Shown: positions 1 to 57,505 of the stretch, one piece after another
How the letters are laid out: every line of letters begins with the position of its first letter
Position numbering within the stretch: position 1 is the stretch's first letter
Source: Candidatus Undinarchaeales archaeon
GTDB taxonomy: Archaea > SpSt-1190 > JASMDC01
Length of the DNA stretch: 62,750 bases
Assembly (NCBI GenBank): GCA_030753015.1
Contig: JASMDC010000019.1
Location: forward strand, 1 to 62,750
Direction of reading: 5' to 3'
The notes under the pieces: generated by a model
Told to the model about the DNA's origin: nothing
Databases searched by the model: none
Seen by the model: the letters and a program-made list of their open reading frames with translations, nothing else
Translations under genes and position numbers: made by a program

Positions 1-65
1 TAATACAATAGGGGGCTGGCGTGCCGGTACTCGTCCGGAAAGTACCTTTCGGCTCTATCCCCCCC

Positions 66-110
66 CTCACGGAAGGGGACTTCCCACCGAAACAAAAAAA
101 AGAGTTAAAA
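66..110 (+). promoter_or_regulatory. Conserved promoter-like element, copy 1: palindrome GGAAGGGGACTTCC, then CCGAAAC, an A-run and GAGTTAAA (TATA-like), ending about 25 nt before the GTG at 134
   Basis: A near-identical roughly 45-nt element is seen at three loci (66-110, 15036-15080, 36125-36167). The TTAAA sits 25-29 nt upstream of the start codon in the two leaderless cases. Confidence 0.55.
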
Positions 111-133
111 AGTACCACGGACTCTATTCCTTT

Positions 134-1930
134 GTGGGAAGATGTAACTTTCGTCCCCGGCTGCTCTCGTACAGCCGTGGCCAAGGGTTCATCGTGGAGT
201 ACTTCCTCTCCTTCGCACTCTTCCTGTTCGTTTTCGTGTCAGTTCTCGTGCTGCTGGTCCAGACGCTCCTCCCCCGAGTCGACGACTCCCGTTTCTACAC
301 AAACACCATGATGGCGCGACGCGCGGCCCTCCAGCTCCTCACGGAGGAGGCAGGGTACGTTCAGTGGTGGAACAAGGACCTGAACACGCGGGTTCTGTTG
401 AACATCACCGATCATGGTGGCGAGCGCTCGAGCCATCGCTGGGTGAACATCTCTGGTCAACGCTTGAACAACTCCGGTATCGACATCAGCGTCATCGACT
501 TCAGCACCCTCCATGTGTACGAGCGCAGCTACATGTCGAACGAGCTGATCAAGTTCAATCCGGGAAACGATGACGCCTTGAACCGCGCGGACGAGATCCA
601 TTTCAAGGTGTTCTTGGGGGACCTCCGGTCGGTGGTCGTACACCTCTACTTCGACCGGCTCAAGAATGTCGTCCCGGTGGAGAAGTATATCGTGAACACA
701 GAGAAGGACACCGCGAAGCGCGGGCTTGCGGACGACCTCGATATCACCGCCAGGGCCCCGACCGGTTCGAAGACCGGCAAGGGGCGGACGTTCGACTATG
801 CCCTCTCCACCATTGACGTGCAGATCGGTCAGATGTCCCAGATCATCTCCGTGACCTGGACAGCGGAGAACGCCACCGACTACCTCACCGTAGGGAGGAC
901 CGATATGGACTTAATGCTCAATACCCATCCTTATCTCGACCTCTACTACAAGGTGACCGGGACGGACAATCCGTTCAATATGGCCTACATATTCAGGTAC
1001 GACTCGAACCTATACCAGGACACGGTAGAGCTGTACCCACTCGATGCCAACGCTACGGGCGTATGGCGGCATGTGCACATGAACCTCGAGGACGCCGCGC
1101 ACGAACTGATCGGTATCTCGAGCGGACACCCGTCCATCCACCTCACGGCCTTGTTTATCAATCTCACCGACGCCGAGCGCGACCGGTGGGAGGGTTCCAC
1201 CTTCCTGTACTTCGACGACATCACCCTCAAGCCACCGGACGACACCAAGGCCCTCACCGGAGGGGAGGGGACTGAGGACAGGATCCATGCCGTGGTCATG
1301 GAGACGCTGGAGCAGGCCCACTGGCTGGCACGGAACGAGATCCCCGAGAGCTTCGGGTTCACCACCGACGAAGGCCGCACACTCAACCATACCTCTATCG
1401 TCCGGTTCAGAGAGCTCCAGTCCATCGAGAGCTACGAGGAGCTCAAGCATGTCCTGGGCATAGACGATAAGTACCACACCCGTATCAAAATCGTCCGTCC
1501 CGTGTCCCGAAACATCATCAACGTCACGACCGACGAGACCATCTACGATTATGGTACCAACCGCACCGTGCACATCAACATCATCATGCCTCCATACGTC
1601 ACCGATAAGTGGCCCGAGGAGTGCACGTTCCCATCCTACACGTCCGAGGATCCCTGTATCCTGCTCGTCCTTCTCAGGCCGGACGGTACGTCCACGACGC
1701 TTGTCGTCCCCCATCTGGAGACTATAACCGAGAGGGTGGAGACGCGGTTCTTCACCGACAAGGACACCGTAAAGACGGGCGAGGTCGTGTTCTCACGGCT
1801 TGCATACGCCACCGACTACAACCTCACCATCACCGATCCGGCCGGTACCTATGGCATCCAGGTGTACGCGCTAGCCGCGGAACCGCGCGGGCTCCTCCAC
1901 GGGTACGGCACATTCTCACTGAGCCGGTGA
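134..1930 (+). CDS. Cell-surface glycoprotein with a type IV pilin-like (class III) signal peptide (leader MGRCNFRPRLLSYSRG | QGFIVEYFLSFALFLF...). It is rich in N-x-S/T sequons and may be a pilin-like or S-layer-like structural protein.
   Basis: There is a GTG start 25-29 nt after the TATA-like TTAAA of the conserved element, which suggests a leaderless mRNA. The N-terminus matches the RG|Q...EY pattern (a DUF361-like pilin signature) followed by a hydrophobic stretch. There are more than 10 NxS/T sequons. The product is a 598-aa ORF. Confidence 0.5.
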   Translation: MGRCNFRPRLLSYSRGQGFIVEYFLSFALFLFVFVSVLVLLVQTLLPRVDDSRFYTNTMMARRAALQLLTEEAGYVQWWNKDLNTRVLLNITDHGGERSSHRWVNISGQRLNNSGIDISVIDFSTLHVYERSYMSNELIKFNPGNDDALNRADEIHFKVFLGDLRSVVVHLYFDRLKNVVPVEKYIVNTEKDTAKRGLADDLDITARAPTGSKTGKGRTFDYALSTIDVQIGQMSQIISVTWTAENATDYLTVGRTDMDLMLNTHPYLDLYYKVTGTDNPFNMAYIFRYDSNLYQDTVELYPLDANATGVWRHVHMNLEDAAHELIGISSGHPSIHLTALFINLTDAERDRWEGSTFLYFDDITLKPPDDTKALTGGEGTEDRIHAVVMETLEQAHWLARNEIPESFGFTTDEGRTLNHTSIVRFRELQSIESYEELKHVLGIDDKYHTRIKIVRPVSRNIINVTTDETIYDYGTNRTVHINIIMPPYVTDKWPEECTFPSYTSEDPCILLVLLRPDGTSTTLVVPHLETITERVETRFFTDKDTVKTGEVVFSRLAYATDYNLTITDPAGTYGIQVYALAAEPRGLLHGYGTFSLSR

Positions 1931-1932
1931 GC

Positions 1933-3288
1933 TCACACCTTGACGCCGACCGCGTTGCGGGCCTCGTCGCTCATGATGCCCTCGAGCTTGCGCTGGAGAC
2001 GGCGCATCCCTGCCTTCCAGAAGTTCTTACCGGACAAAGTGAGATGGCGACTGGGGATCACCCGGCTGGCGAGCTCCAGGAGCGGGCCTTGCATGGTCCA
2101 CCAACGCGGATTGAGCACCCGCGTGCCGAACCGTCGCTCGAACCGGGTCAGTTCCCTGTCCACGAGGCTCCCAGGAAAGAAGGCATAGGACTGGGCCGCG
2201 ATCCACCCGGCCGTTGCATCCTTCCCATCCACGAGCCGCTCCATGTAGGAGAGTGTCTCGGCCACCGTCTGTCGGGTCTCGCCGGGATGGTTGAAGAGGA
2301 GGTAGGTGGCGTGTGGTACGCCATTCTCGTCCAGCGCGGCGTCCGCTGCAGCGTACGTGTCCAGATAGGTGGCGGGATCGGCGCACTTGGCCATGATCTC
2401 TAGCATTTCAGGGGAGGCCGCGTCCAGACCTATATCGAGTCGCAGGTCGAGCTTCGCCATGAGAGCAGCGTCCGCTTCATCTATGAGGTCGGCACGCGTC
2501 TCGGCCCAGTACTCGGTGCCGGCGCCAAGGTCCACGAGCCCACGAAGAAAGTCGCGACGCCATGAGGGGGACGCGCCGAAGCACGCATCGGAGAACCGCA
2601 GCTGGGACGGTTCCACTACCTCCACAGTCCGGGCCACGAGGCGCAACGCCTCATCAACGGGGAGCGCACGATGGTCGCCCTTTACGCCTTCCATGCAAAA
2701 GGAGCACGAGAAGGGGCATCCCCTGGACAGGTACACACCCACGGGCCATCCCCGGACGAGATAAGGGTACCCTTCCCAGTCGAGCTCCGGGGCATACTCC
2801 ATCGGTGAGGGCCTGCCTGCCACCACGCGGGTGCTCGTTCCTCGTTTGGGCATGCTCTTGACCGCGTCCACCAGGGCAGACTCGCCCTCACCTGTGACGA
2901 CAATGTCGGCCAGCCCTTCGAAGTCATCGGGGCGGGCTGTTGCATGGTATCCCCCCACGATAGTGAGCGCCGCGGGCCGAACGATCGCCGCGGCCTCCAG
3001 AACACACTTGGTCGCCCGGTAAGAGAGACTCGTCCAGCAGGAGACGGCAAGCACGTCGAACGTGCGCTCGCCCAGCATTTGCCGTACCTCCAGGGCGAAC
3101 GCAGCCTCCTCGCGGATGTCAGCGGGACGGCCGATCTCCACCTCGAGGTCAAGGACATCGCACTCAGCAGCTTTGCTCACCGCCGTGTAGAGCGCCACCA
3201 TATGGGTCTTGGTGGGAAGGACGGCGCCCCCCCAACCCTCGGAACGGAAAGATGAGGGGTAGACCAGCAGGACCCGCGGTCGCGCCAT
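1933..3288 (-). CDS. B12-binding (class B) radical SAM protein
   Basis: The N-terminal half looks like a cobalamin-binding Rossmann domain. A CPFSCSFC (CxxxCxxC-type) radical SAM cluster motif is present. The ORF is 451 aa. Confidence 0.75.
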   Translation of the reverse strand: MARPRVLLVYPSSFRSEGWGGAVLPTKTHMVALYTAVSKAAECDVLDLEVEIGRPADIREEAAFALEVRQMLGERTFDVLAVSCWTSLSYRATKCVLEAAAIVRPAALTIVGGYHATARPDDFEGLADIVVTGEGESALVDAVKSMPKRGTSTRVVAGRPSPMEYAPELDWEGYPYLVRGWPVGVYLSRGCPFSCSFCMEGVKGDHRALPVDEALRLVARTVEVVEPSQLRFSDACFGASPSWRRDFLRGLVDLGAGTEYWAETRADLIDEADAALMAKLDLRLDIGLDAASPEMLEIMAKCADPATYLDTYAAADAALDENGVPHATYLLFNHPGETRQTVAETLSYMERLVDGKDATAGWIAAQSYAFFPGSLVDRELTRFERRFGTRVLNPRWWTMQGPLLELASRVIPSRHLTLSGKNFWKAGMRRLQRKLEGIMSDEARNAVGVKV

Positions 3289-3326: not shown

Positions 3327-4916
3327 CTACTCCTCGTCGAGCCAGGAATCGATGAGCTCCTCGTCCTCGTCGGTGGCGTCCTCCTTGGGCGCGGGCTTGA
3401 GACGACGCGCCGGGGGGTGCTCGCCCGCAGGACGCGGTGGCGGCCCACCCTCCTCAGGAGGGAGCCCGTCCCTGTCCTCGGGTGTCAGAGCGGCTTCTGG
3501 ACGCGTGAGCGCCTCGGGAGCCAGCCGCTCGATGATACGGAGCGCGTCCTCACGACGGTGAGCAACGGCCTGGTGGCGGTGCCATGACACATCCTCGGAC
3601 CAATCCTTGGGCACATCAGAGCGTAGCACCTCCACTCGGGGACGATCGATAGATGGCTCCAGAGCCGCACCGATGCGTCGATTGCGTTCGATCTGCTGGA
3701 CCGAGCCGAGCTCGTTCATGGTCTCCATCTCCGCTTCGGCCTCCCCCACGGGTATCTTTTGGACAGCTTCGCTGTAGGAAGGCGGCCGCATCGAGGAGAG
3801 GTAGACGTAGCTGGCGGCGAACACGACAAGAGCGAGGGCGAGCACGCTCGTCCATTCAGGGATCACCAATCCGGGCTCACGTTCACCGATGATATGGTAG
3901 GAGACGATGTTACCGGTCGCTGCTTCGATATCGCCCTCGATGATCACCTGCTCGCTCCCCTTCACAGCCAGGACCCTGAAGCGGTACCCGGTGAAGGGAC
4001 GAACGGTGTGGGGCCTTGTTATGCGGTAGCCCTGTGTCTCCAGCAGCGCCATCTCGTTGGTCACCTCGAGACGGCTTCGGAGGATGTTCTCGATGGACAT
4101 CTTGACGCTGCCGATGTTCGTGCAGGGTTCGCCGCCGCCGCAGGGACGGACCGCCGCCTTGTCGGTGGGCCTCATGCAGGTGCCGGCAAGGCAGACTAGA
4201 CCCTCGCTGCATCCGCAATCGCTGCAGCATGAAGTGCTGTTCTCCCCCTTCTCGCAGATGCGGTCACCGCACACGGGTCCCGTGTCGTCAGGCGGTACCG
4301 ACGGGACCTGCAGGGGCTCGGGGCTCGCACTCTCTGACGGTGTGGGCGAGACGGCTGAGGGGGACAGGCTCGTCTTCGGCGGCACGGGGGTGATGATGCC
4401 ACCCCTGTTTGGTGTCGGCTCGGGGGTCGGAGTAGGGGTGGGCTCGGGCGTGGGCTCGCCCTCGCGTACCTGGAACTGGACGTTCAGACGCTGGGAGAAG
4501 CTGCCCACCTCATTAGGGATGCAGTCGAGCCGGTACATCCCGGGGATCCAGTCATAGAACGAGCGGTCCAGGGTGATGCGCACGGAAAGGCCTGCTGCTG
4601 TCGTGGGCGGCTGTTCATCGCACACGGGGGGATCGGCATGGTCCCCCGGGCACAAAGCATAGGGCTCTCCCAGCGGATCGACGAGCCCGCACCGCAGGGT
4701 CCAGTTGCTCTCTGTCTCCACCACGTGGAAGTCCAGGACCACTTTCTCCAGCAGCGTGTGCTCGGGCGCCGGTTCGTACCCACGGTCAGTGAGCTCCACG
4801 AACATCCGCACCTCGTCCACAGCACAGGCCGCTGAAGCGACGACGAACATGGAGAGCAGGAGGAGGGCCGTCGTGCCCCCTCGTCCATCACCTTTCACGG
4901 CGCTGTAGCTGGCCAT
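3327..4916 (-). CDS. Secreted Cys-rich surface protein with a PT-rich linker, a C-terminal TM anchor and an acidic cytoplasmic tail
   Basis: An internal Met start (MASYSAV...) gives a Sec-type signal peptide. Other features are an EPTPEPTPTPTPEPTP linker, the Cys module CGDRICEKGENSTSCCSDCGCSEGLVC, a TM helix WTSVLALALVVFAASYVYL and an acidic tail ending IDSWLDEE. It is paralogous to the C-terminus of the 4966..8571 product. Confidence 0.55.
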   Translation of the reverse strand: MASYSAVKGDGRGGTTALLLLSMFVVASAACAVDEVRMFVELTDRGYEPAPEHTLLEKVVLDFHVVETESNWTLRCGLVDPLGEPYALCPGDHADPPVCDEQPPTTAAGLSVRITLDRSFYDWIPGMYRLDCIPNEVGSFSQRLNVQFQVREGEPTPEPTPTPTPEPTPNRGGIITPVPPKTSLSPSAVSPTPSESASPEPLQVPSVPPDDTGPVCGDRICEKGENSTSCCSDCGCSEGLVCLAGTCMRPTDKAAVRPCGGGEPCTNIGSVKMSIENILRSRLEVTNEMALLETQGYRITRPHTVRPFTGYRFRVLAVKGSEQVIIEGDIEAATGNIVSYHIIGEREPGLVIPEWTSVLALALVVFAASYVYLSSMRPPSYSEAVQKIPVGEAEAEMETMNELGSVQQIERNRRIGAALEPSIDRPRVEVLRSDVPKDWSEDVSWHRHQAVAHRREDALRIIERLAPEALTRPEAALTPEDRDGLPPEEGGPPPRPAGEHPPARRLKPAPKEDATDEDEELIDSWLDEE

Positions 4917-4965: not shown

Positions 4966-7900
4966 TCACTGGAACCAGTCGGGAAGGTCCTCGTCCTCGC
5001 CCCCACCGCTGCCATAGTCGCCCGAGGGCGGTGCTGCCTGCTCGGGCGGTGCCTGGACCACCACGACCTGGGGCCTGCTCTGCATGACGTACATGGCACC
5101 TATGCCGATGATGGCGATCACGGCACCGATGAGAAGGGTCTGGACGGAGATGGGACCTTCGGACTTAGTCTCCGGGACGTGCCAAGAGACCAGTGTCTTG
5201 GTCTTGGTGTCCACCACTGCAGTGATGGCGATGCGCTCGTTTCCCTTTCGTGCGGTGATGACTACATCGTACTCGCCATCTGCGGTCTGTTGGAGTTCCG
5301 GCTTGCCGATCTTCCACCCATCGTTGCGGAGCTCGATGAGCCCGGCATCGGCGAAATCGTCTAACTTGATAGTGTCCATGACCTTCTGGACATCGACCTG
5401 ACTGTCCACGCACACTCCGTCCTTGCACTCCTTCTTGCCGGTGCAGCCGCAGTCCACGCAACAGGTGTTGTAGTTCTCGCCCGAGTCGCAGGAGTCGTCG
5501 CCGCACACGGCCTTGATGTCATCAATCTCCTTGACGCACTGGTTCTGCCTGCACCTGTAGCCGGGATCGCATCCACAGTCCGTGCAGCAGCTCTTGGACG
5601 TCTCGCCCTCACTGCACTGCAGGTCGCCGCACACCGTAGGGGGTGGCTTGGCGGGCGTGGCGACCGGTGTGGACGACGGCTGCGGCTGAGCACTGGTCGT
5701 GGGGCCCAAGGTGGTGACAGGTGTGGGTCCTCCTGAGACGACAGGTGTGGGCCCACCCGGTGGCATGGTGGAGAAGTCGCGGCAGAGGTGGGCGTTGGTA
5801 TCGCAGTACTGTCCACCGATGCAGTTGGCGTTCTCGCAGCAGTCGCCGCCCGCGAACCACGCTCCAGTACAGCACTTACCGCCGGTGCGCTCCACGCACT
5901 GGTGGTTCGATACCTCCTGGCATGTCGTGCAGGCGAGGGCCACGCACGTCTTGGACGTGTCACAGCTCTTGTCGCTGTCGCACCCGGAGTCATCGCAGCA
6001 CTTGCCGCCCGCGTACCACGTTCCCTGACAGCATTTCCCATCAGCTTCTGTATAGCATGTGGTGCCGCAGGGTACCTGGCCCACGTCACAGGCCAGGCTC
6101 GAGCACTGGTTGTTGGTCTGGCAGGTCTCGCCCGCTACCGTGCAGTCACCGTCGATGCAACAGGCGGCCCCGGCGATCCACGCGTCTGTGCAGCACTTAC
6201 CGCCATCGGTGCGGGCCACACAGGTGTGGTTGGAGGTCATCTGACATGACGTGCACACGAGGTCCTCGCACTTGTTGGCCTGGCAGGACTTGGCCGGATC
6301 GGTGCAGTCGTCGTTGCTGCAACAGACCGCTCCTTCCGTCCACACACCAGCGCAGCACTTACCGGTGGCGCCGACCTTGCACTCGCCTGCGCAAAGGTTA
6401 TAGCCCGCGATACACTGGGTGGTCGAGCAGGTCCCCTCGATGCAGGCGAACAGACCATCGCAGGCCGGGCCTGTGCATCCGGCAGGCGTGCCGGTGCCCC
6501 CTCCAGCGACGCACGCGTTGGCGGAGCAGGTCTCCCCGGTGCCCGTGCAGTCACCATCGGTGCAGCACTTGTCGCTACCCGCATGCCAGGTGGTATCGCA
6601 GCACTCCCCAGGGTTCTTGTTGCACGTGGTGCCGCACAGGGTGTAGCCGGTAACGCACGCATCCGTCGAGCACACATCCGAGACGCACGCGAAGTTGCCG
6701 GTGCAAAGGTTGGTGTCGGAGCACGCAGGAGGCGTGGTACACGTGTTGCTCGTGCACACCAGGTCGCCAGTGCAGTCATCCTTGATGCAGCACTTGTCGC
6801 TACCCGCATGCCAGGTCGTGGCGCAGCACTTCCCGGGATCCTGGTTGCACGTGGTGCCGCACAGGGTGTAGTCGGTAACGCATGCATCCGTCGAGCACAC
6901 GTCCGAGACGCACGCGAAGTTGCCGGTGCAGAGGTTGGTGTCGGAGCACGCCGCGGGCGCGGCGCACGTGTTGGCCGTGCACACCTGATCACCAGTGCAG
7001 TCCGCCTTCACGCAGCACTTGTCGCTGCCCGCATGCCAGGTCGAGTCGCAGCACTCCCCGGGATCGGCGTTGCACGTGGTGCCGCAGAACGTGTAATCCG
7101 TCACGCACGTGTCCGTCGAGCATGCGTCCGAGACGCATGCGAAGTTGCCGGTGCAGAGGTCGGTATCGGAGCATTCTGGGGGCGCGGTGCACGTGTTGTC
7201 GACGCACTCCTCCTCCCCGCAGTCATCATCGATGCAGCACTTGCCGCTACCCGCATGCCAGGTAGTGTCGCAGCACTCCCCGGGATCCTGGTTGCACGTC
7301 GAGCCGCACAGGGTGTAGCCGGTAACGCATGTGTCCGTCGAGCATGCGTCCGAGACGCACGCGAAGTTGCCGGTGCAGGGCTTGGTGTCAGAGCACCCGG
7401 CATCGTCAGTGCATAAGTGGGATACAGAATCGCAGGTCTTCTTCGCTACATTCTCACTACAATCGTCGCTGACGCAACACTCCCAGGCGGCCTGCCACAC
7501 GTTGTCGCAACACTCACCAAGGAGAGGATCCCCATCTATCTCATGGCACGTTCCGCCACAAGGAGGATTCTCGTACCCGTCAGCACAATCCGTTGGTGAA
7601 CACGTACACGTCTCAGTATCACAGGAGTCCCCCACACACATGAAGTTGTCACAATCGGCCGCAGTCACACATTTCTTCACGCATTTGAACTCTGCCGTAC
7701 ATCCCTCGGTCACTTCGCAATCACCATCAATACAGCACTCGGCCCCCTCACGCCACGTGCTATCGCCCTCACAGCACATCCCACTGCCCTTGACCTTGCA
7801 TGGACCCGGCGCCGGGCATTCCACAAAACCACTAGCGTCGCAACCGCATTTGGTACCGCCGTGTGCGCATTGTGTCAGCGAGTTACACTCGGACGCGTAA

Positions 7901-8571
7901 TCGTCGAACCGACTGCAGTAGCAGTCCGCGGTGTTCGTCGGATCCTCGCCCTTGCCCGTATCGCAGCAGTTCTCGGTGGGATTCTCGCACGCAGGATAAA
8001 GAAAGTCCGCTGGCACAGCGTCAGCCCCGCACGCCTCGTCGCAGCACTGGTAGTCATCACCACACCCGGTACGGGTGTCGAAGACCGACCCGCCGCACAC
8101 GGTGTTCCCCTCGGTGCAGCAATAGCCCACAGGGTCCCCTCCGGTGCAGGCCACCGGTGCGACCACGTCCACGCATGCCTCCTTGCAGCAGTCGTAGTCA
8201 CCTCCCCCCGGCTTCTGCCCGCAGCCGGAACCGAACTGGCTATTGCCGCCAGGGCATGTGGGCGTATCCACCGTGCAACAGGTACCGCCCAGGTCTGCTA
8301 CGCAGGCATCACCTCCGCCGCCACCACCGGTGACGGGTGAGCACATCCCCGGGGTCCCGGCTGTCCACTCGCATCCGTTGGAGGCCGTGCAGTCGCCTTC
8401 AACAGTGACACTGCTGCATTGCTGGCAAGCAGCTCCGGACCAATAGCATTTGCCAGCATCGCAAGCGCTCATATCTGCGCATCCGTCGCAGTTGAACGAG
8501 TCACACACGCCCATTCCGAGCGCGAGCGTGATGAACATAACTGTAAGGATAGTAAAGGTCTCCCTTCTCAT
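4966..8571 (-). CDS. Giant (about 1200 aa) extremely Cys-rich surface protein with tandem repeat modules and a C-terminal TM anchor
   Basis: It has a Sec signal (MRRETFTILTVMFITLALGMGVC). A CCxxxW(H/Q)AGxxCCxxDDC motif recurs about 10 times, and there are about 4.5 near-identical 75-aa repeats. A PT-rich linker is followed by two CGDxxCxxGExxxCCxDCGC modules, then a TM helix and an acidic tail ending LPDWFQ. Confidence 0.7.
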   Translation of the reverse strand: MRRETFTILTVMFITLALGMGVCDSFNCDGCADMSACDAGKCYWSGAACQQCSSVTVEGDCTASNGCEWTAGTPGMCSPVTGGGGGGDACVADLGGTCCTVDTPTCPGGNSQFGSGCGQKPGGGDYDCCKEACVDVVAPVACTGGDPVGYCCTEGNTVCGGSVFDTRTGCGDDYQCCDEACGADAVPADFLYPACENPTENCCDTGKGEDPTNTADCYCSRFDDYASECNSLTQCAHGGTKCGCDASGFVECPAPGPCKVKGSGMCCEGDSTWREGAECCIDGDCEVTEGCTAEFKCVKKCVTAADCDNFMCVGDSCDTETCTCSPTDCADGYENPPCGGTCHEIDGDPLLGECCDNVWQAAWECCVSDDCSENVAKKTCDSVSHLCTDDAGCSDTKPCTGNFACVSDACSTDTCVTGYTLCGSTCNQDPGECCDTTWHAGSGKCCIDDDCGEEECVDNTCTAPPECSDTDLCTGNFACVSDACSTDTCVTDYTFCGTTCNADPGECCDSTWHAGSDKCCVKADCTGDQVCTANTCAAPAACSDTNLCTGNFACVSDVCSTDACVTDYTLCGTTCNQDPGKCCATTWHAGSDKCCIKDDCTGDLVCTSNTCTTPPACSDTNLCTGNFACVSDVCSTDACVTGYTLCGTTCNKNPGECCDTTWHAGSDKCCTDGDCTGTGETCSANACVAGGGTGTPAGCTGPACDGLFACIEGTCSTTQCIAGYNLCAGECKVGATGKCCAGVWTEGAVCCSNDDCTDPAKSCQANKCEDLVCTSCQMTSNHTCVARTDGGKCCTDAWIAGAACCIDGDCTVAGETCQTNNQCSSLACDVGQVPCGTTCYTEADGKCCQGTWYAGGKCCDDSGCDSDKSCDTSKTCVALACTTCQEVSNHQCVERTGGKCCTGAWFAGGDCCENANCIGGQYCDTNAHLCRDFSTMPPGGPTPVVSGGPTPVTTLGPTTSAQPQPSSTPVATPAKPPPTVCGDLQCSEGETSKSCCTDCGCDPGYRCRQNQCVKEIDDIKAVCGDDSCDSGENYNTCCVDCGCTGKKECKDGVCVDSQVDVQKVMDTIKLDDFADAGLIELRNDGWKIGKPELQQTADGEYDVVITARKGNERIAITAVVDTKTKTLVSWHVPETKSEGPISVQTLLIGAVIAIIGIGAMYVMQSRPQVVVVQAPPEQAAPPSGDYGSGGGEDEDLPDWFQ
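6440..7440. repeat. Intragenic tandem repeat of about 4.5 copies, 225-nt period, roughly 90% identical
   Basis: The string gcgaagttgccggtgca(g/a)aggttggtgtcggagca recurs at 6689, 6914, 7139 and 7361. This produces look-alike ORFs in other frames (6583..7416, 6237..6992). Confidence 0.8.
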
Positions 8572-8683
8572 ACTAAGAAACGGGTCTGTATGCAATAAAT
8601 ACCTTTCCCCCCAAGCGCTGCGAAACGGGGCTCACGCTTATAAGCATGGACGGCCACCGAGGTGCCCGGCTCCCTGCCCACGG

Positions 8684-9832
8684 ATGGTGACCATGGCCCC
8701 GATCCCGCCCACCTCGCCCCTGGTGCTCGTCCCGCTGCTGGCACTGGGCGCCATCACCTCCCTCACCGACATCAGGGAGGGCAAGATCAGGAACAAGCAC
8801 GTCTTCCCTTTCATCCTTCTGGGTATCCTCAGGATGCTCATCCTGGACACCCACGGTTACCTAGGCCTGCTGAACACGGGTATCGCCCTGGCCGCGGGAT
8901 TCGGGCTCTGGCACCTCAACCTCTGGAGCGCGGGCGACGCCAAGCTCTTCCTCGCCTTCGCTGCCCTCGTCCCTCTCAACGATCTGACCATGCAGTTCAA
9001 TCAGGTCTACTGGTTTCCCTCCTTCATGGTGCTGGTGAACACCTTCGTGCCGATGTTCGCGCTCATGCTCTTCCGACTGCTGTTCTTCACACCCCTGGCC
9101 ATGAAGACGATGCTCCTGCGACGCGTCCTCAAACCGGTCCAGGTGGTGAGCGTCGGGATGGCGCTCTTCGTGTTCATCTGGCTGGGCCGGGTGCTCATGG
9201 ACGCCCTCGGGCTCCCCCAGGTGTTCATCATCAACCTGCTCATCATGTTCGCCTGCATCGAGGTCATCGACCGGGTGGCACCGACGGGTGCGATGCCCGT
9301 GTACGCAGTCCTTTCGGTCGTCCGGCTCGCCGTGGACCCTGGTGTGTGGGAACCGGGCTTCATCGCCGCGTTCGGGACCCTCCTCATATCCTTCCTCCTG
9401 CTGCGCTACTTCGTCATCTACATGGGCCACCACTTCTACAGCACTCCCTGCGCTATCGACGAGCTCAAGCCCGGGATGATGCCCTCGGAAGGCATCGTCG
9501 AGAAGGACGGGAGGTACCACAAGGTGGAGCTCATCACCATCAACATCCTCTCTGCCATGCGCCTCAAGAAGCTCAAGCTGGCCTTCGAGATGCGGTCGAA
9601 GGGTCTCAACGAGGAGGAGGTCGAGCGCATCAAGAAGCTGGCAGAGGACGATAAGCTCCAGTTCGATGAGATCCTCGTCCAGCAGACCACGCCCTTCGCC
9701 CCCTTCATCTTCCTCGGCGCTCTCCTCACACTATATACCGGGGGCGATCCCGTGACCTACGTCAAGGTGGTCCATCCCGATCTCGTGCGCAGCATATTGC
9801 CAGCGGTCCTGGCACCCTACATCGGCCTCTAG
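8684..9832 (+). CDS. A24-family prepilin/preflagellin peptidase homolog (long form with a C-terminal extension), PibD/EppA-like
   Basis: A catalytic Asp motif (SLTDIREGKIRN) lies near the N-terminus, and a second Asp motif (WSAGDAKLF, GxGDxK-like) is present. The protein is polytopic. It is divergent from the giant Cys-rich surface-protein gene. Confidence 0.6.
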   Translation: MVTMAPIPPTSPLVLVPLLALGAITSLTDIREGKIRNKHVFPFILLGILRMLILDTHGYLGLLNTGIALAAGFGLWHLNLWSAGDAKLFLAFAALVPLNDLTMQFNQVYWFPSFMVLVNTFVPMFALMLFRLLFFTPLAMKTMLLRRVLKPVQVVSVGMALFVFIWLGRVLMDALGLPQVFIINLLIMFACIEVIDRVAPTGAMPVYAVLSVVRLAVDPGVWEPGFIAAFGTLLISFLLLRYFVIYMGHHFYSTPCAIDELKPGMMPSEGIVEKDGRYHKVELITINILSAMRLKKLKLAFEMRSKGLNEEEVERIKKLAEDDKLQFDEILVQQTTPFAPFIFLGALLTLYTGGDPVTYVKVVHPDLVRSILPAVLAPYIGL

Positions 9833-9835
9833 GGA

Positions 9836-10771
9836 CTACGACCGGTCCCCGGGGAGCCGCACCTGCCGTCGTACAGGCCGCAGTTCGTCGGTGCCGTAGA
9901 GTCGGGCGTACTCATTCCAGACGCCCTCGCACCGTGGCTCGAGGGTGCACTCGCTACATCGTGGCCCTTTCACCTTCCCACTACGTCGCTCGGGGAGGAA
10001 GTCCCGCGACTCGTACCCGGGCTCGCGCAGCTCGACCTCGGCGGGCAGGTGGAGCTCGATGGCGTTGGCCTCCCTGCCGGGGACAGCGCAGAATGGGACC
10101 GCCTCGTAGTATGCCGTGCGACCGGCCCCTTCCACCACGTCAATAGCCTCGGCCAGGGGACGGGCCAGCTCGCTCAGGCGCGGTACCACGGCCTCGGCGT
10201 CGTCCAGAGCGTTGCCGTCGGGGTGGACGTTGGCGAACTGCACCTGATGGACACCCGCTGCGACCAGCACGCGAGCGATGGCCGACAGCCGGTCGGCGTT
10301 GAGGCGCGTGATGACTGTGTTGGTGAGCACGCGGGCTCCGGCCTCCACAAGGTTGCGGATGCCGCCCATGGTCTGCTCAAAGCCCCCGGGCGCGCAGGTT
10401 ATCGCATCATGGAGCGCTGCAGTATCACCATGTACGGCCACCTCCACCTCATCGACGAGCTCGGCCACGCTCTTGGCGAGGTCCGGGTAGGCGAGCATGC
10501 GCCCGTTGGTCTGGAGGAGCACGCTCAGGCCAAGGTCCTTGGCCGCACGTAGTACGTCGATGATGTCGTCGCGGATGGTGGGCTCGCCCCCAGTGATGAT
10601 GGCGAGCGTGGCGCCGTTGGCAGCGGCCTCGGCAAGCTCCTTGCGCAGCTCGGCCAAGGTGCGGTCAGGCACACCGCGCTGTCGGTGATGCGCGACCACG
10701 CAGTGTCGGCAGTTGTTGTTGCATGCGTAACCGACCTTTACGGCCGCGATGCGGAGGGGGGCGCTCGCCAC
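9836..10771 (-). CDS. Radical SAM protein with a C-terminal SPASM/twitch-like Cys cluster
   Basis: It has CNNNCRHC (Cx3Cx2C) near the N-terminus, GGEPT and QTNG core motifs, and a C-terminal CSECTLEPRC. It lies 4 nt downstream of the other radical SAM gene on the same strand. Confidence 0.7.
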   Translation of the reverse strand: MASAPLRIAAVKVGYACNNNCRHCVVAHHRQRGVPDRTLAELRKELAEAAANGATLAIITGGEPTIRDDIIDVLRAAKDLGLSVLLQTNGRMLAYPDLAKSVAELVDEVEVAVHGDTAALHDAITCAPGGFEQTMGGIRNLVEAGARVLTNTVITRLNADRLSAIARVLVAAGVHQVQFANVHPDGNALDDAEAVVPRLSELARPLAEAIDVVEGAGRTAYYEAVPFCAVPGREANAIELHLPAEVELREPGYESRDFLPERRSGKVKGPRCSECTLEPRCEGVWNEYARLYGTDELRPVRRQVRLPGDRS

Positions 10772-10775
10772 CTGC

Positions 10776-12152
10776 TCACTCCTCGGGATCCGGACTGCTC
10801 CCTTGCAGGGTGTCCCCTTCCTTGCGTGCCATGCTGCGTATCCGTCGCTCTCGGGCCATGTTTCCCAGGCACATACCGACGGTGCCCTTGGTGGTCAGCT
10901 GGTGCACCGAGCACCGCCGTGCCCTCTCATACTCGAAGTTGTCCGGGTTGCACAACGCCCCGATCTCGAGGAAGATAATGCGGGGGGAGAGGTGGAACGC
11001 GCGCAGTGGCCTGCGTAGGAGGATCCCCAGTGCGAGCGAGGCGACGTTGAGCAGGAGGCCAAGGGTTCGCGGGCGCAGGGAGTGTGCGATGGCACGTGTC
11101 AGGAAGTAGGGCGTGGCCAACCAGCTCCCTCGCTCCCGCATGTCCCTGAACCGCTCGAGGGCGGGCTCGAGCCCGTCCAGTTCGAGGACCTCGTTGATCG
11201 TGGAATATTTTCCGTCGCGGTCTCGCAGCAGGAAGAACAGGTACTCGTTGGAGCACCAGCGCTGGGAGATAATGTTGAACAGCGAGTAGAGGAGCTTGTG
11301 GAACTGGAGGATCGTGCCGTTGGAGATGCGCCCGTCGGTCTGCTCGGCGAATATGTCGAGCAGCTCGTCGCCGCGTAGGCTCTTGGAGTGATCCAGCCCG
11401 GCCGAGCCCATCTCCACATAGGACTTGATGGCGATGCCCCGGACGAACGGATGCTCCACGGCATAGTCGATAATGCGGGGGATCTCGTCCTCGTTCAGTC
11501 CACGGGCGATGGTGGCCTCCAGCACCGTCGGGATGCCCAGCTCGCACAGGTTCTCGAGCGTTCTGCGCTTGATCGTGGCCATGTCACACTCGCGCATCGT
11601 CCGGTACACATCGTCGTCGAAACCGTCGAACTGGAGGTGCACCTCATGGAGCCCCGCCTCGGTGAGGGACCGAAGGTACGACATCTCGGCGATAGCCTTC
11701 CCGTTCGTGAAGAGCACGGGCACGTTGCCCGTATCACGGATGACCCGCACGATCTCGGGCAGGTCGTCGCGCACCGTGGGCTCTCCCCCAAAGAGGCTGA
11801 TGCGCTTGCCCTGCATCCCGTCCATCTTCTCCTTGATGAACTTGAGCGACGGCTCATCCCACAATCCCGCCGATGCACGGGTGAAGCAGATGGGACAGGC
11901 CATGTTGCACTTTGGCGTTATGTAGAAAATGTAGCTATCGTGGCTGTGCTCGGGAAGGTCCCAGATGAGAGTGGTGAAGAAGCGGTAGAGCTCACGGTAC
12001 TCTTGCGGATGGCGCGAGAGCACGACGGAGAAGTCGCCGTGCTCGGGGCATGTCTTCTCCATGTACACGCCCTCGTCGTCCACCCTCACTACGGCGTCCA
12101 CGGGGTCGCAGCATACGGGGCAGACGCTCTGGACCTCACGGAGCGTGTCCAC
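10776..12152 (-). CDS. Radical SAM protein with an N-terminal Zn-ribbon/rubredoxin-like Cys motif
   Basis: A TTTTTAAA box at 12176-12184 lies about 25 nt before an in-frame GTG at 12152, which I take as the likely leaderless start (the ORF track extends to 12608). The N-terminus has CPVCC...CPEH, followed by a CNMACPIC cluster. The product is about 459 aa. Confidence 0.6.
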   Translation of the reverse strand: MDTLREVQSVCPVCCDPVDAVVRVDDEGVYMEKTCPEHGDFSVVLSRHPQEYRELYRFFTTLIWDLPEHSHDSYIFYITPKCNMACPICFTRASAGLWDEPSLKFIKEKMDGMQGKRISLFGGEPTVRDDLPEIVRVIRDTGNVPVLFTNGKAIAEMSYLRSLTEAGLHEVHLQFDGFDDDVYRTMRECDMATIKRRTLENLCELGIPTVLEATIARGLNEDEIPRIIDYAVEHPFVRGIAIKSYVEMGSAGLDHSKSLRGDELLDIFAEQTDGRISNGTILQFHKLLYSLFNIISQRWCSNEYLFFLLRDRDGKYSTINEVLELDGLEPALERFRDMRERGSWLATPYFLTRAIAHSLRPRTLGLLLNVASLALGILLRRPLRAFHLSPRIIFLEIGALCNPDNFEYERARRCSVHQLTTKGTVGMCLGNMARERRIRSMARKEGDTLQGSSPDPEE

Positions 12153-12284
12153 GGGCGCCGGTGAGCCTTCGATGTTTAAAAAGAGATTGGTTAACGGGCC
12201 CGCGGGCGCCAGTTTGTACCCTGCTGACGTGGCGCACGTTCTCTTCGGGAACGTAGATAAACCTATCGAAAGCCCCCCCAAGGT

Positions 12285-13430
12285 ATGAAGGTCAATCTCG
12301 CCAGGAAGATGAACGGCATCAAGCCTTCCGATATACGCCGTCTCTTCGACCTTGCACAGGGGATGCCAGGGGTCATCAGCCTCGGCATCGGCGAGCCCGA
12401 CTTCGGAACCCCGGACCACATCCGGGAGGCCGCAAAGCGCGCCATCGACGAGGAGCGGATCTGCTACACACCGAACGCAGGTATCGCTGCCCTGCGCGAG
12501 GCACTGGCGGACAAGTACGGCCGTGAGGGCATGGTGTACGACTCGTCCAGCGAGGTCCTCATCACAGCCGGTGCGACCGAGGCGGTGTCCACCGCCATCC
12601 TCGGCCACGTCAAGACCGGAGACGAGGTCATTGTCCCCGATCCCGCTTTCCTCATCTACACTCCCCTCGTCCAGCTCGCTGGTGGGACGCCGAAGTACCT
12701 TCCCCTCCTGGCCGAGGACGGTTACCGGTTCGACGCCGACCGTCTTGCCGAGCAGGTCAACAAGAAGACCCGGATGATCGTGGTGAACTACCCGTGCAAT
12801 CCCACGGGCATGACCATGGGCACCTCCGACCTGAGGGCTATCGCCGAGATCGCCGAGGACAATGGGACGATCCTGCTATCCGACGAGGTGTACGACCGCC
12901 TCACCTTCGACGGTAAGCGCCACGTGAGCATGGGCACTATCACCGACAACGCCATCGTCATCAACTCGTTCTCCAAGACGTACGCCATGACAGGGTTCAG
13001 AGTGGGCTACGCCCTGGGCCGACGTGAGCTCATCGGCCCCATGCTGCGTGTGCACCAGTTCAACGTCGCATCGCTCACCGTCCCCTCGCAGCACGCTGCC
13101 CTGGCAGCTGCGACCGGTCCCGATGACTGTGTCGAGCACATGTGTGCCGAGTACGAAGCGCGGCGCAACCTTCTGGTGCGCGAGCTAGATAACTTGCAAG
13201 GGGTCTCCTACCTCGTCCCCGAGGGTGCCTTCTACTTCTACCTGGACGTCAGCGATACGGGAATGACAGGACTGGAGTTCTCCGAGCGCATGCTCAAGGA
13301 GGCGCTGGTAGTCGTTGTCCCAGGAAATGCCTTCGGTGACGTAGGCCACCACCACGTCCGAATTTCTTACGCTGCGTCCAGCGAACGCCTCATGGAAGCG
13401 TGCGAGCGGATGCGCCACGTGCTGGAGTGA
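12285..13430 (+). CDS. Class I/II PLP-dependent aminotransferase (aspartate/aromatic aminotransferase-like)
   Basis: It has a typical AAT fold with conserved SFSKTYAMTGFRVGY (Lys-PLP region). A TATA-like AGATAAAC lies about 25 nt upstream of the ATG. Confidence 0.85.
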   Translation: MKVNLARKMNGIKPSDIRRLFDLAQGMPGVISLGIGEPDFGTPDHIREAAKRAIDEERICYTPNAGIAALREALADKYGREGMVYDSSSEVLITAGATEAVSTAILGHVKTGDEVIVPDPAFLIYTPLVQLAGGTPKYLPLLAEDGYRFDADRLAEQVNKKTRMIVVNYPCNPTGMTMGTSDLRAIAEIAEDNGTILLSDEVYDRLTFDGKRHVSMGTITDNAIVINSFSKTYAMTGFRVGYALGRRELIGPMLRVHQFNVASLTVPSQHAALAAATGPDDCVEHMCAEYEARRNLLVRELDNLQGVSYLVPEGAFYFYLDVSDTGMTGLEFSERMLKEALVVVVPGNAFGDVGHHHVRISYAASSERLMEACERMRHVLE

Positions 13431-13444
13431 GCGAGCGGCTGCCA

Positions 13445-14900
13445 AAAGTTGGTGAACTACCCCTCTCCAAGTAGAGATGCTATGAAAATTATTGAACCAC
13501 CGTGTTGCCTTACCTCAGCAAAAGAGGTGACGCAAGATGAAGCACGGACACCAAACAGCACAGAACCTACAGATCGAGTACGAACAACTAACAACCCAGG
13601 AGCTGCACAAGAGATACAGGTACTTCATTGCCAAGGACGTGCACAAGAGGAGCACCACATACAATGTGCGGGACAGGATGGGCACCATCCTGGACCATGG
13701 TGAGACGGCCACGGACTACCAGGACCTCCATGACCGGCTCGAGCCATATCTTGACTCGGCGCTGATCGTGATGGAGGCGAGCACGAGCTACTACAAGCTC
13801 TACCAGGCATTCCTGGAGAACGGCTACGACGTTGTCGTCGCGAACACCATCAAGATACGGTCGCTTTTCCCCAAGGATGACAATATCGACGCTAGGAGGC
13901 TGTCGGACATGCTGCGCTTGGGATCGGTCCCGATCTCGTTCATCCCCGGTCCTGAGACCCAGCACCTGCGGAAGCTGGTCCGGACCAGACACTCCCTGAT
14001 GCAGGAGAAGGTCCGATGGAACAACCGCATCCAGGCACTTATCGACCTAGAGGGACTTAGGATGCCGCCCTTCAATGCCTTCACCAAGACCTGGACCCGG
14101 GCACTCGTCACGTACCTTGAAAGACCGAATGCCAGCTACGAGCTCAAACACACGTTCACGCACTATACCCGGGTGGAGCGACACCTCGAAGAGATCTCAA
14201 AGGAGATGCTCAGGTACACCGTCGAGCACTGGCGAGAAGAGTACGAGTTCCTCCAAACGATCCCCGGGATGGGGCGCATCACTGGATGCTACGTGATCGC
14301 CGATGTCCTGCCCATCGAACGGTTCGCAGTGAAGAAGGGACAGAAGAGTCTGAGACGGTACGTTGGTGTCGTCCCTGCGTTCAGCTCGTCGGGCGATTCC
14401 GTTTCTCAGGGCAGGATCCCAAAAGGGTCGAGCCGGAAGCTGCTTCGCTGGGCACTCGTTGAGGCAGCTAATGCAATAACAAGGACGAAAACCAAACTTG
14501 CTCAGTTCTACAAGATGAAGAAGAAGCAGAAGAAGTGTTCCGGAAAGGCCAAGATCGCCTTGGCTCACAAACTCTCAGATATCATCTATCACGTTCTTAC
14601 GACCAAGAAGCCATACGTGGCATCATGAACTGGAGGTATGAATGAAAGACCGATGAAGGCATGGAGGTGGTAAGGCACGCTGCCCTTGAAGCCCGTGTGT
14701 ATAATACACTCAGTAGAGAGTGGGCAGCCAATGACTCCACATAGTGGGCCAACACGTTAGGAGCGTGCCAGTACCCTGATCGGAGAATGTCGTCAAAGGG
14801 CCTTACCACCAAAATGTCTAAATAGGAGGACGCATATAAATGTAACGAGGGACGCAACACGGGACCGGATGGGGAGAAAAAACAAATCTGATTCCCTCTC
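13445..14900 (+). mobile_element. IS110-family insertion sequence (boundaries approximate)
   Basis: GC content drops relative to the flanks. The element carries a DEDD-type transposase gene plus long noncoding ends, as is usual for IS110. I could not identify TIRs. Confidence 0.5.
13537..14628 (+). CDS. IS110-family transposase
   Basis: It has an N-terminal DEDD region (YFIAKDVHKRST resembles VGIDVHK) and a C-terminal domain typical of the IS110/IS1111 family. Codon usage is lower-GC than the surroundings. Confidence 0.75.
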   Translation: MKHGHQTAQNLQIEYEQLTTQELHKRYRYFIAKDVHKRSTTYNVRDRMGTILDHGETATDYQDLHDRLEPYLDSALIVMEASTSYYKLYQAFLENGYDVVVANTIKIRSLFPKDDNIDARRLSDMLRLGSVPISFIPGPETQHLRKLVRTRHSLMQEKVRWNNRIQALIDLEGLRMPPFNAFTKTWTRALVTYLERPNASYELKHTFTHYTRVERHLEEISKEMLRYTVEHWREEYEFLQTIPGMGRITGCYVIADVLPIERFAVKKGQKSLRRYVGVVPAFSSSGDSVSQGRIPKGSSRKLLRWALVEAANAITRTKTKLAQFYKMKKKQKKCSGKAKIALAHKLSDIIYHVLTTKKPYVAS

Positions 14901-21276: not shown

Positions 21277-21659
21277 TCCTATGTACCCCTGGCAGCGGTT
21301 AGCAGGGTCCGGTGCTTAAAAACATTTCGCTTACGGCCGGAAGTAGGAGAGTATAATGCAGGCGCTCATGTCGTTCGGGGGGGACGATAATATCCGGAAA
21401 CGTGAATCGTCCACTCAATCTTTATAACCCATGAAGGGGAATATAATGACATGCTCGACCAGGGCATGCCCGCGTTCGATGGGCGGCTCTCCCACTATCA
21501 GGAGACAGGGGAGTGCCCAACCTCGTTGAACGCCCGTAACGAGGATTCTGACGACCTCTCCGGACTGCTCTGGGAGGACCTTTTCGCCATGCCATAGTGC
21601 CGCATGAGCCATTAAAATTTAAGCAATGACTCAGTTCTCTGTTGGTAGCAGGTAGACCC

Positions 21660-47181: not shown

Positions 47182-47710
47182 CCTCCTTGGGGACGCCCCC
47201 TTCGGCGAACAGGCGCACGCGTCCGTGCCGGCACTGTATCTTGAGCTTGACCGAACCGCAGATGAGGTTACCACAGGTGACCTCAAGCCTGTAGCGCTCT
47301 TCAGGCTCGTCTTTCCACTCACCGATGGAGAATGTGCCGAAGTGTCGCCCGTTCACGTAAGCGGATCCTGTCGGTGGTGCCTGATCGAACTGGGAACGCG
47401 GGACCTCCACCTCGATACCCTGCACCGCACCGCTAGCGAATTCCTCTTCACGGTGACGGACGTTGATATGACGTGACCATGTGAAGACCTGGAGGTGCTC
47501 GGTGTTGTGCGATCCACCGTCACAAGCGTGTTCCAGTGCTAAAGCGAGCTTCTTTGCTATGATCTCCGCACGCTTCGCGGAGTTACGGTCGGCGAGCCGC
47601 TGATTCTCCATCTGGGCCGTGAACAGGAGCATCGCGAAAAGCATGAGCACTGCGGACATGAGCGCCAGTGTTTCTAGTGGCACCTGTCCCCGTTGTGCCC
47701 GAACCATCAT
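47168..47710 (-). CDS. Pilin-like class III signal-peptide protein (180 aa)
   Basis: The N-terminus is MMVRAQRG|QVPLETLALMSAVLMLFAMLLF (Gln+1, Glu+5). There is an ATGA overlap with the upstream gene. Confidence 0.6.
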   Translation of the reverse strand: MMVRAQRGQVPLETLALMSAVLMLFAMLLFTAQMENQRLADRNSAKRAEIIAKKLALALEHACDGGSHNTEHLQVFTWSRHINVRHREEEFASGAVQGIEVEVPRSQFDQAPPTGSAYVNGRHFGTFSIGEWKDEPEERYRLEVTCGNLICGSVKLKIQCRHGRVRLFAEGGVPKEDEDE

Positions 47711-53536: not shown

Positions 53537-53538
53537 GT

Positions 53539-56901: not shown

Positions 56902-56914
56902 ACCTGCGGCCCGT

Positions 56915-57505
56915 TTAACACGACGGCATACGCTGAGCGGCAGCGTTACCCATGATGATGTTCGGCCTGCCTCCCGTGTAGTCGAAGGAGATATACAACG
57001 TGGTACACTGGGGACCCATAGTGCCGCCGGCGTCAAAAGCGTGGCACTCTCCGTCCTGGAGGTTAGTGTAGTCGTCGGCAATGTTATCCGGCTCCGTCTG
57101 GGTCTGGATCTGGAATCCCAGAGTCTCGGCACCATCGGTAGCTATCTTACCGGCCATGCCGTTGGGCGGGTCACCGCCACCCTGGTCGAACAGGTCATCG
57201 TCGCATGATGTAGGCATAGGGATCGTGAAGCATGTGAAATCCCTGCCCAGGCCCTTGCCGCGTGCCACACATTGTCTTATGGCCCTATCGATGTCGTCCG
57301 CGCACCCGAAGGCCGGGTCCACTGCGTACTGCTCGGACTGGGGCAGCGAACGGAGACAGAGCCACCGCTTCATCTGGAACGCGACGAAGGCCGCGATCGC
57401 CAGACCCGCCGTGGCGATGATTAGATATTCGAGCGGGATGGCACCGCGCTCATCGCTGGCCATCCTCCTGAGAAGCATCTTCTTGCTCAGCTTGTACTTT
57501 CTCAT
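56915..57505 (-). CDS. Pilin-like class III signal-peptide protein (196 aa), the first gene of the operon
   Basis: A CAGATAAAAAG box about 25 nt upstream suggests a leaderless ATG. The N-terminus is ...RRMASDERG|AIPLEYLIIATAGLAIAAFVAF (Glu+5). The C-terminal domain has paired Cys. Confidence 0.65.
   Translation of the reverse strand: MRKYKLSKKMLLRRMASDERGAIPLEYLIIATAGLAIAAFVAFQMKRWLCLRSLPQSEQYAVDPAFGCADDIDRAIRQCVARGKGLGRDFTCFTIPMPTSCDDDLFDQGGGDPPNGMAGKIATDGAETLGFQIQTQTEPDNIADDYTNLQDGECHAFDAGGTMGPQCTTLYISFDYTGGRPNIIMGNAAAQRMPSC

Follow-up and report, generated by a model that had tools for sequence, protein, structure and literature searches.

Granulin/epithelin modules (PF00396) form stacks of β-hairpins pinned together by disulfides and contain 12 cysteines with four CC pairs, and the variant-specific surface proteins (VSPs) of Giardia are type I proteins with a Cys-rich (>10%) repetitive ectodomain, one C-terminal transmembrane (TM) helix and a short conserved tail. 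In the archaeal lineage considered here, the Undinarchaeota have been inferred to be host-dependent, and a role as adhesins has been suggested for LamG proteins of the Undinarchaeales (Dombrowski et al., 2020; PMC7414124). We analyzed a 62,750-nucleotide (nt) stretch of DNA from Candidatus Undinarchaeales archaeon, a very small marine member of the DPANN archaea (assembly GCA_030753015.1, contig JASMDC010000019.1, positions 1 to 62,750; hereafter the window), which encodes a hyper-Cys-rich protein of 1201 amino acids (aa) containing a 225-nt tandem repeat and consisting largely of 48-aa modules, here termed CC-W-CC modules. The protein is of a known kind, the Cys-rich modular surface proteins; what is new here is the CC-W-CC module family.

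The likeness to granulin lies in the tandem extracellular modules (~50-57 aa), the adjacent CC pairs and a predicted disulfide-pinned stack of β-hairpins, whereas the CC-W-CC module has 10 cysteines, two CC pairs and an invariant tryptophan, and is archaeal and membrane-anchored. The protein has the same type I, Cys-rich layout as the Giardia VSPs, including the C-terminal TM helix and the short conserved tail, but shows no Pfam relation to them, its motif is CC-W-CC rather than CXXC, and we found no evidence of a switching gene family in the handful of module genes, each of which has a different architecture. With the putative LamG/Concanavalin-type adhesins of the Undinarchaeales (arCOG07813; PMC7414124) it shares the lineage, the format of a large secreted protein and a proposed role in cell-cell contact, and the module is fused to LamG/DUF2341 in the relatives P0016 and P0037/P0114; the window protein differs in that it has no LamG domain, only modules. 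The reading that we favor, with a probability of roughly 0.6, is that of a Sec-exported type I membrane protein in which a disulfide-stiffened modular stalk projects a variable N-terminal head, with the tandem units acting as conserved spacers.

Architecture and constraint of the Cys-rich protein

The gene spans 3606 nt and its product has the same sequence as MDP7493199.1, which is listed as a hypothetical protein from Candidatus Undinarchaeales archaeon (coordinates of all domains are in Table 1). Two full-length and syntenic orthologues were available for comparison with the window protein (W): O (P0002, locus L001, 1240 aa, 71% identity) and T (P0108, locus L007, 1202 aa, 79% identity). 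The open reading frame (ORF) as opened mechanically starts at a TTG at 8595 (4966..8595 (-), 1209 aa), a start that we set aside because it lies inside the TATA-like AGGTATTTATTG and because all database gene calls use the ATG at 8571. Hydropathy analysis revealed hydrophobic segments only at residues 4-26 and 1138-1165 of the 1201-aa protein and, combined with the sequence, an N-terminal signal, one C-terminal TM helix and the residues QSRP directly after it, which is the layout of a type I membrane-anchored protein. A lipobox was rejected, being found only in T (IGAC), with MGVC in W and ALDC in O. Cysteine accounts for 176 of 1201 residues (14.7%) and for 17.5% of the mature ectodomain, so that the value of more than 15% Cys given in an earlier, sequence-only reading of this DNA applies to the mature ectodomain and not to the whole protein; the description in that reading of a hyper-Cys-rich modular extracellular surface protein is borne out by the signal peptide, the single C-terminal TM helix and the 10 modules. 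The ectodomain comprises ~910 aa, nearly all of it made of 48-aa modules. As a side observation, N-x-S/T sequons are nearly absent from the window protein, P0002, P0108 and the distant relative P0014 (1, 0, 1 and 0, respectively, in proteins of >1200 aa each, where ~7 would be expected by an estimate from composition).

Within the window, the CC-x3-W-x-AG-x2-CC-x3-DC core is confined to this protein, which contains it 10 times. When 46 modules taken from nine proteins were aligned, the 48-aa consensus was C-x2-G-x3-C-x3-C-x5-G-x-CC-x3-W-x2-GG-x-CC-x-D-x-DC-x5-C-x4-C, in which ten cysteines and one tryptophan are invariant. In the 75-aa "long" unit, a 22-aa segment, C-x5-C-x5-C-x4-C-x4-, stands before such a module and ends with the cysteine that opens the module; this segment is the 4-Cys hairpin insert of the long form. 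Because the segment (C TGNFAC VSDVC STDAC) resembles the C-terminal hairpin of the module (DC TGDLVC TSNTC), it likely arose by internal duplication, and the occurrence of the long form in two distant relatives, as a 74-aa period in P0018 and as the first module of P0017, indicates that this form is old. An AlphaFold2 model of unit 3, built on an alignment of 20 modules of W and O, shows four successive β-hairpins with a predicted local distance difference test (pLDDT) score of 88.9. The Cys count is even in the four family members counted, that is, the three full-length orthologues and P0014 (176, 184, 176 and 186). Given the extracellular location as well, we predict 5 disulfides for each module and 7 for each long unit.

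Selection acts unevenly along the protein. Between orthologues, the most constrained parts are the tandem units and the short modules, with ratios of nonsynonymous to synonymous substitution rates (dN/dS, omega) of 0.17-0.29, the tandem units by themselves spanning 0.18-0.29, a mark of purifying selection, and the fastest part is the N-terminal 392 aa, with a dN of 0.20-0.73 and an omega of 0.36-0.76 (dS was saturated in two comparisons); modules 1-2, which lie within it, have a dN of 0.27-0.73. All amino-acid polymorphisms among population variants map to residues 32-236. These features are consistent with a conserved stalk carrying a variable head. In such an arrangement each module would fold into a stack of β-hairpins held together by 5 disulfides, or by 7 where the module is of the long form, ten modules in series would form a stiff stalk, the number of units would set its reach, and the stalk would hold the fast-evolving N-terminal 370 aa off the cell, for contact with a partner cell or a substrate. 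The disulfide bonding, the rod shape and the role in adhesion or host contact are what we infer. Two points weigh against this reading: we found no homologue of known function, which leaves the adhesion or host-contact role purely inferential, and the raised dN of the head could reflect relaxed constraint instead of diversifying selection, as omega stays below 1.

The membrane-proximal part is shared with the product of the adjacent downstream gene, a 529-aa protein whose C-terminal cassette likewise consists of a Pro/Thr linker, a CGD motif, a cystatin/PepSY-like domain and a TM helix (BLASTP E=1e-14), and whose ectodomain is different and Cys-poor. In the Cys-rich protein, the juxtamembrane domain has a fold similar to PepSY, cystatin-like and M4-propeptide (FTP) domains. 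The 35-aa, 8-Cys CGD motif (CG[DN]xxCxxGExxxxCCxDCGCxxGxxCxxxxC), for which there is no Pfam model, has two copies in the Cys-rich protein and a single one in the neighboring protein, and it usually comes in pairs that adjoin a membrane anchor in otherwise unrelated proteins; it thus appears widespread in surface proteins, presumably archaeal ones, the search library carrying no taxonomy. Both cytoplasmic tails end in an acidic, Trp-containing motif (EDEDLPDWFQ and DEDEELIDSWLDEE), a likeness that hints at a common cytoplasmic partner of both proteins.

A C-terminal TM anchor following a Pro/Thr-rich linker is typical of archaeal surface-layer (S-layer) glycoproteins, and the Cys-rich protein has such an anchor and linker. 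The two adjacent syntenic genes with their common cassette, and the strong conservation of the stalk part, would also fit structural envelope components (of an S-layer or a stalk) that together form a wall layer. We nevertheless consider this explanation unlikely: S-layer proteins are typically Cys-poor, whereas Cys makes up over a sixth of this ectodomain; N-glycosylation sequons are almost lacking; the distribution of the family is extremely narrow, and the head is quick to change; and the same cassette is found on many unrelated ectodomains (PQQ, NHL, LamG), which makes it look like a general display device.

Age and stability of the tandem array

Tandem Repeats Finder reports an array at 6541..7396 with a period of 225, 3.8 copies, 84% matches and a score of 1160, and a repeat search found four in-register copies, spaced 225/225/222 nt apart, with 88, 78 and 76% identity to the reference copy. 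In the protein, these correspond to four units of 74, 75, 75 and 75 aa (residues 393-691), which together with the linker after unit 4 are encoded by window 6478..7395 and are followed by a diverged fifth. The tandem repeat and its period, as first noted from the sequence, are therefore real, but the units are not near-identical. Pairwise identity among the four units is 77-86% at the DNA and 73-80% at the protein level, which replaces the earlier estimate of about 90% DNA identity, and the longest exact tract between any two window units is 32 nt. A 37-mer that had been reported in all four copies does recur, albeit with mismatches (1, 5 and 5), and exact agreement of all four copies is limited to the 17 nt at its beginning.

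Comparison with the orthologues dates the array. The number of units is likewise four in T, whereas O contains five and part of another, and the units correspond by position (amino-acid identities of 86% for W1 and T1, 88% for W3 and T3, 92% for W4 and T4, 85% for W1 and O1, and 79% for W4 and O5). The dS between units within the window is 0.27-0.81, compared to ~0.40 between orthologues in the same region, which, along with the positional orthology, indicates that the four-unit array predates the split of the W, T and O lineages. A recent expansion in this genome, as had been proposed, is thus not supported. In the O lineage, on the other hand, the 97.8% DNA identity of O3 and O4 and their common exact tract of 195 nt point to a recent duplication. 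Segment-wise comparison showed that the last third of each unit follows strictly positional orthology and that the middle third has been homogenized within lineages (T1/T3 99%, O3/O4 100%, O5 96%), with a mosaic grouping of W2 with T1-T3 and of W1, W3 and W4 with O1, O2 and T4; a one-codon indel (TTTW versus TTW) follows lineage, not unit position. We take this mosaicism and the lineage-tracking indel as signatures of gene conversion on an evolutionary time scale, and the array changes over evolutionary time by rare unit duplication and short gene-conversion tracts.

Within the sampled populations the array is constant. The 90% identity cluster has 11 members, of which all nine full-length ones are 1201 aa long, and one exact variant is present on 17 contigs. 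Six loci were compared for the array, the window and five from other assemblies. Four of the latter differ from the window by 6 nt, all at gene nt 323-705 and none in the repeats, and a JGI contig (L011), recovered in the genome and metagenome scans, carries an identical copy with the same four units; an apparent deficit of 60 aa in L011 was an artefact of reporting, and no unit is absent there. Since independent assemblies agree on the array, it is not a product of assembly, and its length does not vary in the populations sampled.

These data bear directly on the size variation of an adhesin by repeat slippage that had been called plausible from the sequence alone; in this reading the repeats would slip or recombine often, and cells of one population would differ in the length of the protein. 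What speaks for such a size-variable (contingency) adhesin comes from the relatives: the five units plus a partial one in O, with the nearly identical O3/O4 pair, the gene-conversion-like homogenization of middle segments within T and O, and the growth of a neighboring linker to (GTGS)n in another orthologue. The near-identical repeats and the heterogeneity in number that mark contingency loci are not what we observe here, where units are 77-86% identical with exact tracts of at most 32 nt, protein length is constant across the sampled assemblies, none of the five other-assembly loci has a nucleotide difference in the repeats, and T, at a dS of ~0.4, still has exactly four positionally orthologous units. 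We therefore regard this explanation as very improbable, and in this population the array is not a contingency locus. The repeat is real but ordinary in its dynamics: old, constrained and fixed in number.

The orthologue with the expanded linker is a truncated one (L006, from Candidatus Undinarchaeota archaeon SRP077602_co2_57, positions 1..270), also from the genome and metagenome scans. In place of the 9-aa GGGTGTPAG (window 6478..6504) it carries a run of (GTGS)n/(GT)n that is no shorter than 90 aa, and its contig ends inside this run. The length-hypervariable spot of the gene thus appears to be this simple-sequence linker, not the 225-nt units.

Two other explanations fare worse still. The very high Cys content, the CC pairs, the C-x2-C elements present in some modules and the radical S-adenosylmethionine (SAM) genes that flank the locus in all lineages could suggest a thiol protein that binds metal or is redox-active, akin to a metallothionein or a zinc ribbon, in which the cysteines serve as ligands instead of forming disulfides. 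This we hold to be even less probable than length variation, given that the signal peptide and the single C-terminal anchor put the cysteines outside the cell, that the 10-Cys pattern is invariant and the Cys count even in all orthologues counted, that the unit is modeled as a β-hairpin stack, that His makes up only 1.0% of residues, its sole recurrent occurrence being within a C-x2-C-x5-6-H-x-C module variant, and that the flanking radical SAM proteins score far under the peptide-maturase cut-offs, with best matches that are lipid- or cofactor-enzyme-like (Tes, TrsS, B12-rSAM). As for a collapsed or expanded repeat, the sequences do come from short-read metagenome assemblies and in O, where an exact tract of 195 nt occurs, the copy number given may be too low, but the finding of the same 3606-nt gene in many independent assemblies of NCBI, ENA, JGI and Logan, exact tracts that stay below assembler k-mers, an intact reading frame and a dN/dS below 1 leave an assembly artefact in the window with a negligible chance.

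Relatives of the CC-W-CC module

Searches of Pfam-A and NCBIfam with the 1209-aa ORF returned no family at E<=1, granulin, EGF, furin-like, VSP, GCC2_GCC3 and TNFR included, scans of its neighbor against both collections were likewise empty, and no Pfam model covers the module region of the distant module-bearing proteins. PDB sequence searches (profile-based and phmmer) with two profiles and the whole protein gave nothing better than E=0.2 (best 0.2-0.5), and the best Foldseek match of the unit model had E=2.2, small disulfide-rich domains being hard to match. Knottins and the Dumpy DPY module recall, in structure or sequence and in only the faintest way, a disulfide hairpin of 20-30 aa (Foldseek E 2-9; DPY E=0.2); these matches are non-significant and each covers <40% of the unit. 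No relative turned up in a viral contig scan, and the literature searched on Cys-rich surface proteins of DPANN archaea contained nothing pertinent. A word-indexed search with the full protein recovered only itself and one orthologue, and the same kind of search with a 48-aa module alignment (A4) had no match; P0118, obtained in a search with a four-module alignment (A5), was rejected as an unrelated C-x2-C...NH-x-C repeat protein. An exhaustive phmmer search of 1.84 billion representatives yielded 94 hits, with about ten clusters matching the module region and the remaining ~80 hits matching the CGD motif region alone.

The module-bearing clusters differ widely in their other domains. P0013 (591 aa) is a module fragment with no other domains, a piece of orthologue T, and P0099 (92 aa, 1 module) is likewise a fragment. 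P0014 (1290 aa, 14.4% Cys) has 15 modules and no other domain detected. The remainder combine modules with LamG and DUF2341 (P0016, 2432 aa, 7 modules), WD40 (P0017, 1602 aa, 4 modules), BNR (P0018/P0110, 2208 aa, 5 modules), FGE-sulfatase (P0019/P0111, 522/733 aa, 4 modules), LamG and PQQ (P0037/P0114, 1389/1399 aa, 1 module) or NHL (P0041/P0117, 839/842 aa, 1 module). Orthologue O and P0016 share one contig of 87,991 bp, the accessions under P0114 stem from the two metagenome-assembled genomes that also contain the window protein, and several other module-bearing proteins come from the same ENA study. The small number of clusters and their varied domain company indicate that the module is a rare, lineage-restricted and mobile extracellular domain, one that accompanies carbohydrate-binding and β-propeller domains. 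With no match in Pfam, NCBIfam or PDB, the 48-aa, 10-Cys module would define a previously undescribed family. Somewhat short of an even chance, in our estimate, is the broader possibility that CC-W-CC is a new disulfide-rich fold and domain family largely confined to Undinarchaeales-like DPANN archaea, a rigid spacer that displays LamG, BNR, β-propeller and variable heads from a common anchor cassette.

Two observations concern P0014 (L009, 8001..11873), the relative with the largest number of modules. Its Cys-poor end domain, GTCADYS...H...D, looks like a transglutaminase-type Cys-His-Asp core, for which Pfam gave no hit, and its gene adjoins one for a 1413-aa LamG/NHL protein, with a phage-integrase gene ~3.4 kb upstream.

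The sequence-only reading had also suggested a common module family for a 964-aa protein of the window and the Cys-rich protein. In the 964-aa protein, the N-terminus (RG-QVALEF) is class III-like, Cys amounts to 4.8%, and nine loops of 21 aa with 2 Cys each have the form C-x4-GG-x-W-x6-C, a repeat type different from the 48-aa, 10-Cys modules. BLASTP gave E=0.28 and hhalign a probability of 17% over nine columns, and the resemblance seems to amount to a Trp next to a Gly between two Cys, with no detectable relationship. The gene heads a run of four large same-strand ORFs, among which the 964-aa and 1198-aa ORFs were scanned and had no Pfam or NCBIfam match.

Neighboring genes and significance

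The upstream gene, divergent from that for the Cys-rich protein, encodes an archaeal A24 prepilin peptidase. Class III (prepilin-type) signals have a short basic N-terminus and a [KR]-[GA] cleavage site right before the hydrophobic stretch. By eye, the N-terminus of the Cys-rich protein, MRRE-TFTIL..., has Glu at -1 and no G/A; since it is not class III, no substrate relationship with the A24 peptidase is seen, and we rejected this link.

In each of the three lineages, the two surface-protein genes are flanked by three radical SAM genes. Their products are B12-binding, HxsC/SPASM-like and Tes/TrsS-like with a zinc ribbon, and all three score below family cut-offs. Maturation of the Cys-rich protein by radical SAM enzymes was rejected on scores as well as architecture, the neighbors scoring 24-183 bits versus maturase-family cut-offs of 268-725, and the protein was also rejected as a member of a radical-SAM-modified peptide class (SCIFF, ranthipeptides, sactipeptides), as it is a 1201-aa protein with a signal peptide and not a short precursor. 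In L003, two of the three genes are called as one 771-aa fusion.

An IS110-family transposase gene is present in the W-lineage loci (L002, L003) and not at the orthologous locus L001. Past the opposite end of the syntenic block, L002, L003 and L005 have an IS605 OrfB/TnpB gene. Elsewhere in the window, an archaeal alanyl-tRNA synthetase scores above its NCBIfam cut-off, and a 1307-aa protein contains tetratricopeptide repeat (TPR)-like repeats that match Pfam families typical of eukaryotes, namely SNAP, Clathrin and IF140/IFT172 TPR (E 1e-18 to 1e-7).

Table 1. Window coordinates of the Cys-rich surface protein, its domains and other genes mentioned in the text
Feature	Position	Strand	Remarks
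Cys-rich surface protein gene	4966..8571	(-)	ATG 8571, stop 4966..4968; 1201 aa
TATA-like element AGGTATTTATTG	8593..8604	(-)	~22 nt upstream of ATG; read from sequence, putative function
Sec-type signal peptide MRRETFTILTVMFITLALGMGV	8506..8571	(-)	by hydropathy and sequence; RR n-region
N-terminal Cys-rich "head"	7867..8505	(-)	residues 23-235; 15.4% Cys
Modules 1-2, divergent CC-W-CC	7396..7866	(-)	residues 236-392
Tandem unit 1	7174..7395	(-)	74 aa, 14 Cys
Tandem unit 2	6949..7173	(-)	75 aa
Tandem unit 3	6724..6948	(-)	75 aa; unit modeled with AlphaFold2
Tandem unit 4 and GGGTGTPAG linker	6478..6723	(-)	unit 75 aa; 7-aa linker, residues 692-698
Fifth long unit, diverged	6259..6477	(-)	73 aa; 43% identical to unit 3
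Three short modules	5773..6258	(-)	53-55 aa, 10 Cys each; DNA period 159-162 nt
Pro/Thr/Ser-rich linker	5632..5772	(-)	from sequence
Two 35-aa CGDxxCxxGExxxxCCxDCGC...C motif copies	5404..5631	(-)	
Juxtamembrane α+β domain, cystatin/PepSY-like fold	5152..5403	(-)	
Single C-terminal TM helix	5080..5151	(-)	by hydropathy
Cytoplasmic tail	4969..5079	(-)	37 aa, ends EDEDLPDWFQ; kept in all orthologues
Downstream neighbor gene	3327..4916	(-)	529 aa; 49-nt gap; syntenic in all lineages
CGD motif of downstream neighbor	4209..4271	(-)	
Archaeal A24 prepilin peptidase gene	8684..9832		divergent upstream gene
Radical SAM gene	1933..3288	(-)	
Radical SAM gene	9836..10771	(-)	
Radical SAM gene	10776..12608	(-)	
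IS110-family transposase gene	13537..14628	(+)	
Gene for protein with TPR-like repeats	21642..25565	(+)	1307 aa
964-aa ORF	47707..50601	(-)	first of four same-strand ORFs
Second ORF of the run	50589..52301	(-)	
Third ORF of the run	52283..53785	(-)	
Fourth ORF of the run	53539..57135	(-)	

With length variation refuted for this population, the interest of the gene as a contingency locus falls away, and its significance lies in the favored reading of a modular stalk that projects a variable head. DPANN archaea such as the Undinarchaeota are thought to live attached to other cells, and neither their hosts nor the attachment molecules are established. The locus offers a recognizable candidate surface structure, with a short searchable module signature, a conserved anchor cassette and a fast-evolving tip, features that could serve for antibodies or probes, for tracing the lineage in metagenomes and for tests of host binding. 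A protein with a predicted need for ~88 disulfides is a notable investment for an archaeon whose genome is very small, and one may ask how such cells carry out oxidative folding. If the broader possibility of a new fold and family largely confined to Undinarchaeales-like DPANN archaea is true, it would point to a lineage-specific "display toolkit" for host attachment and to extensive extracellular disulfide chemistry in an ultra-small archaeon.

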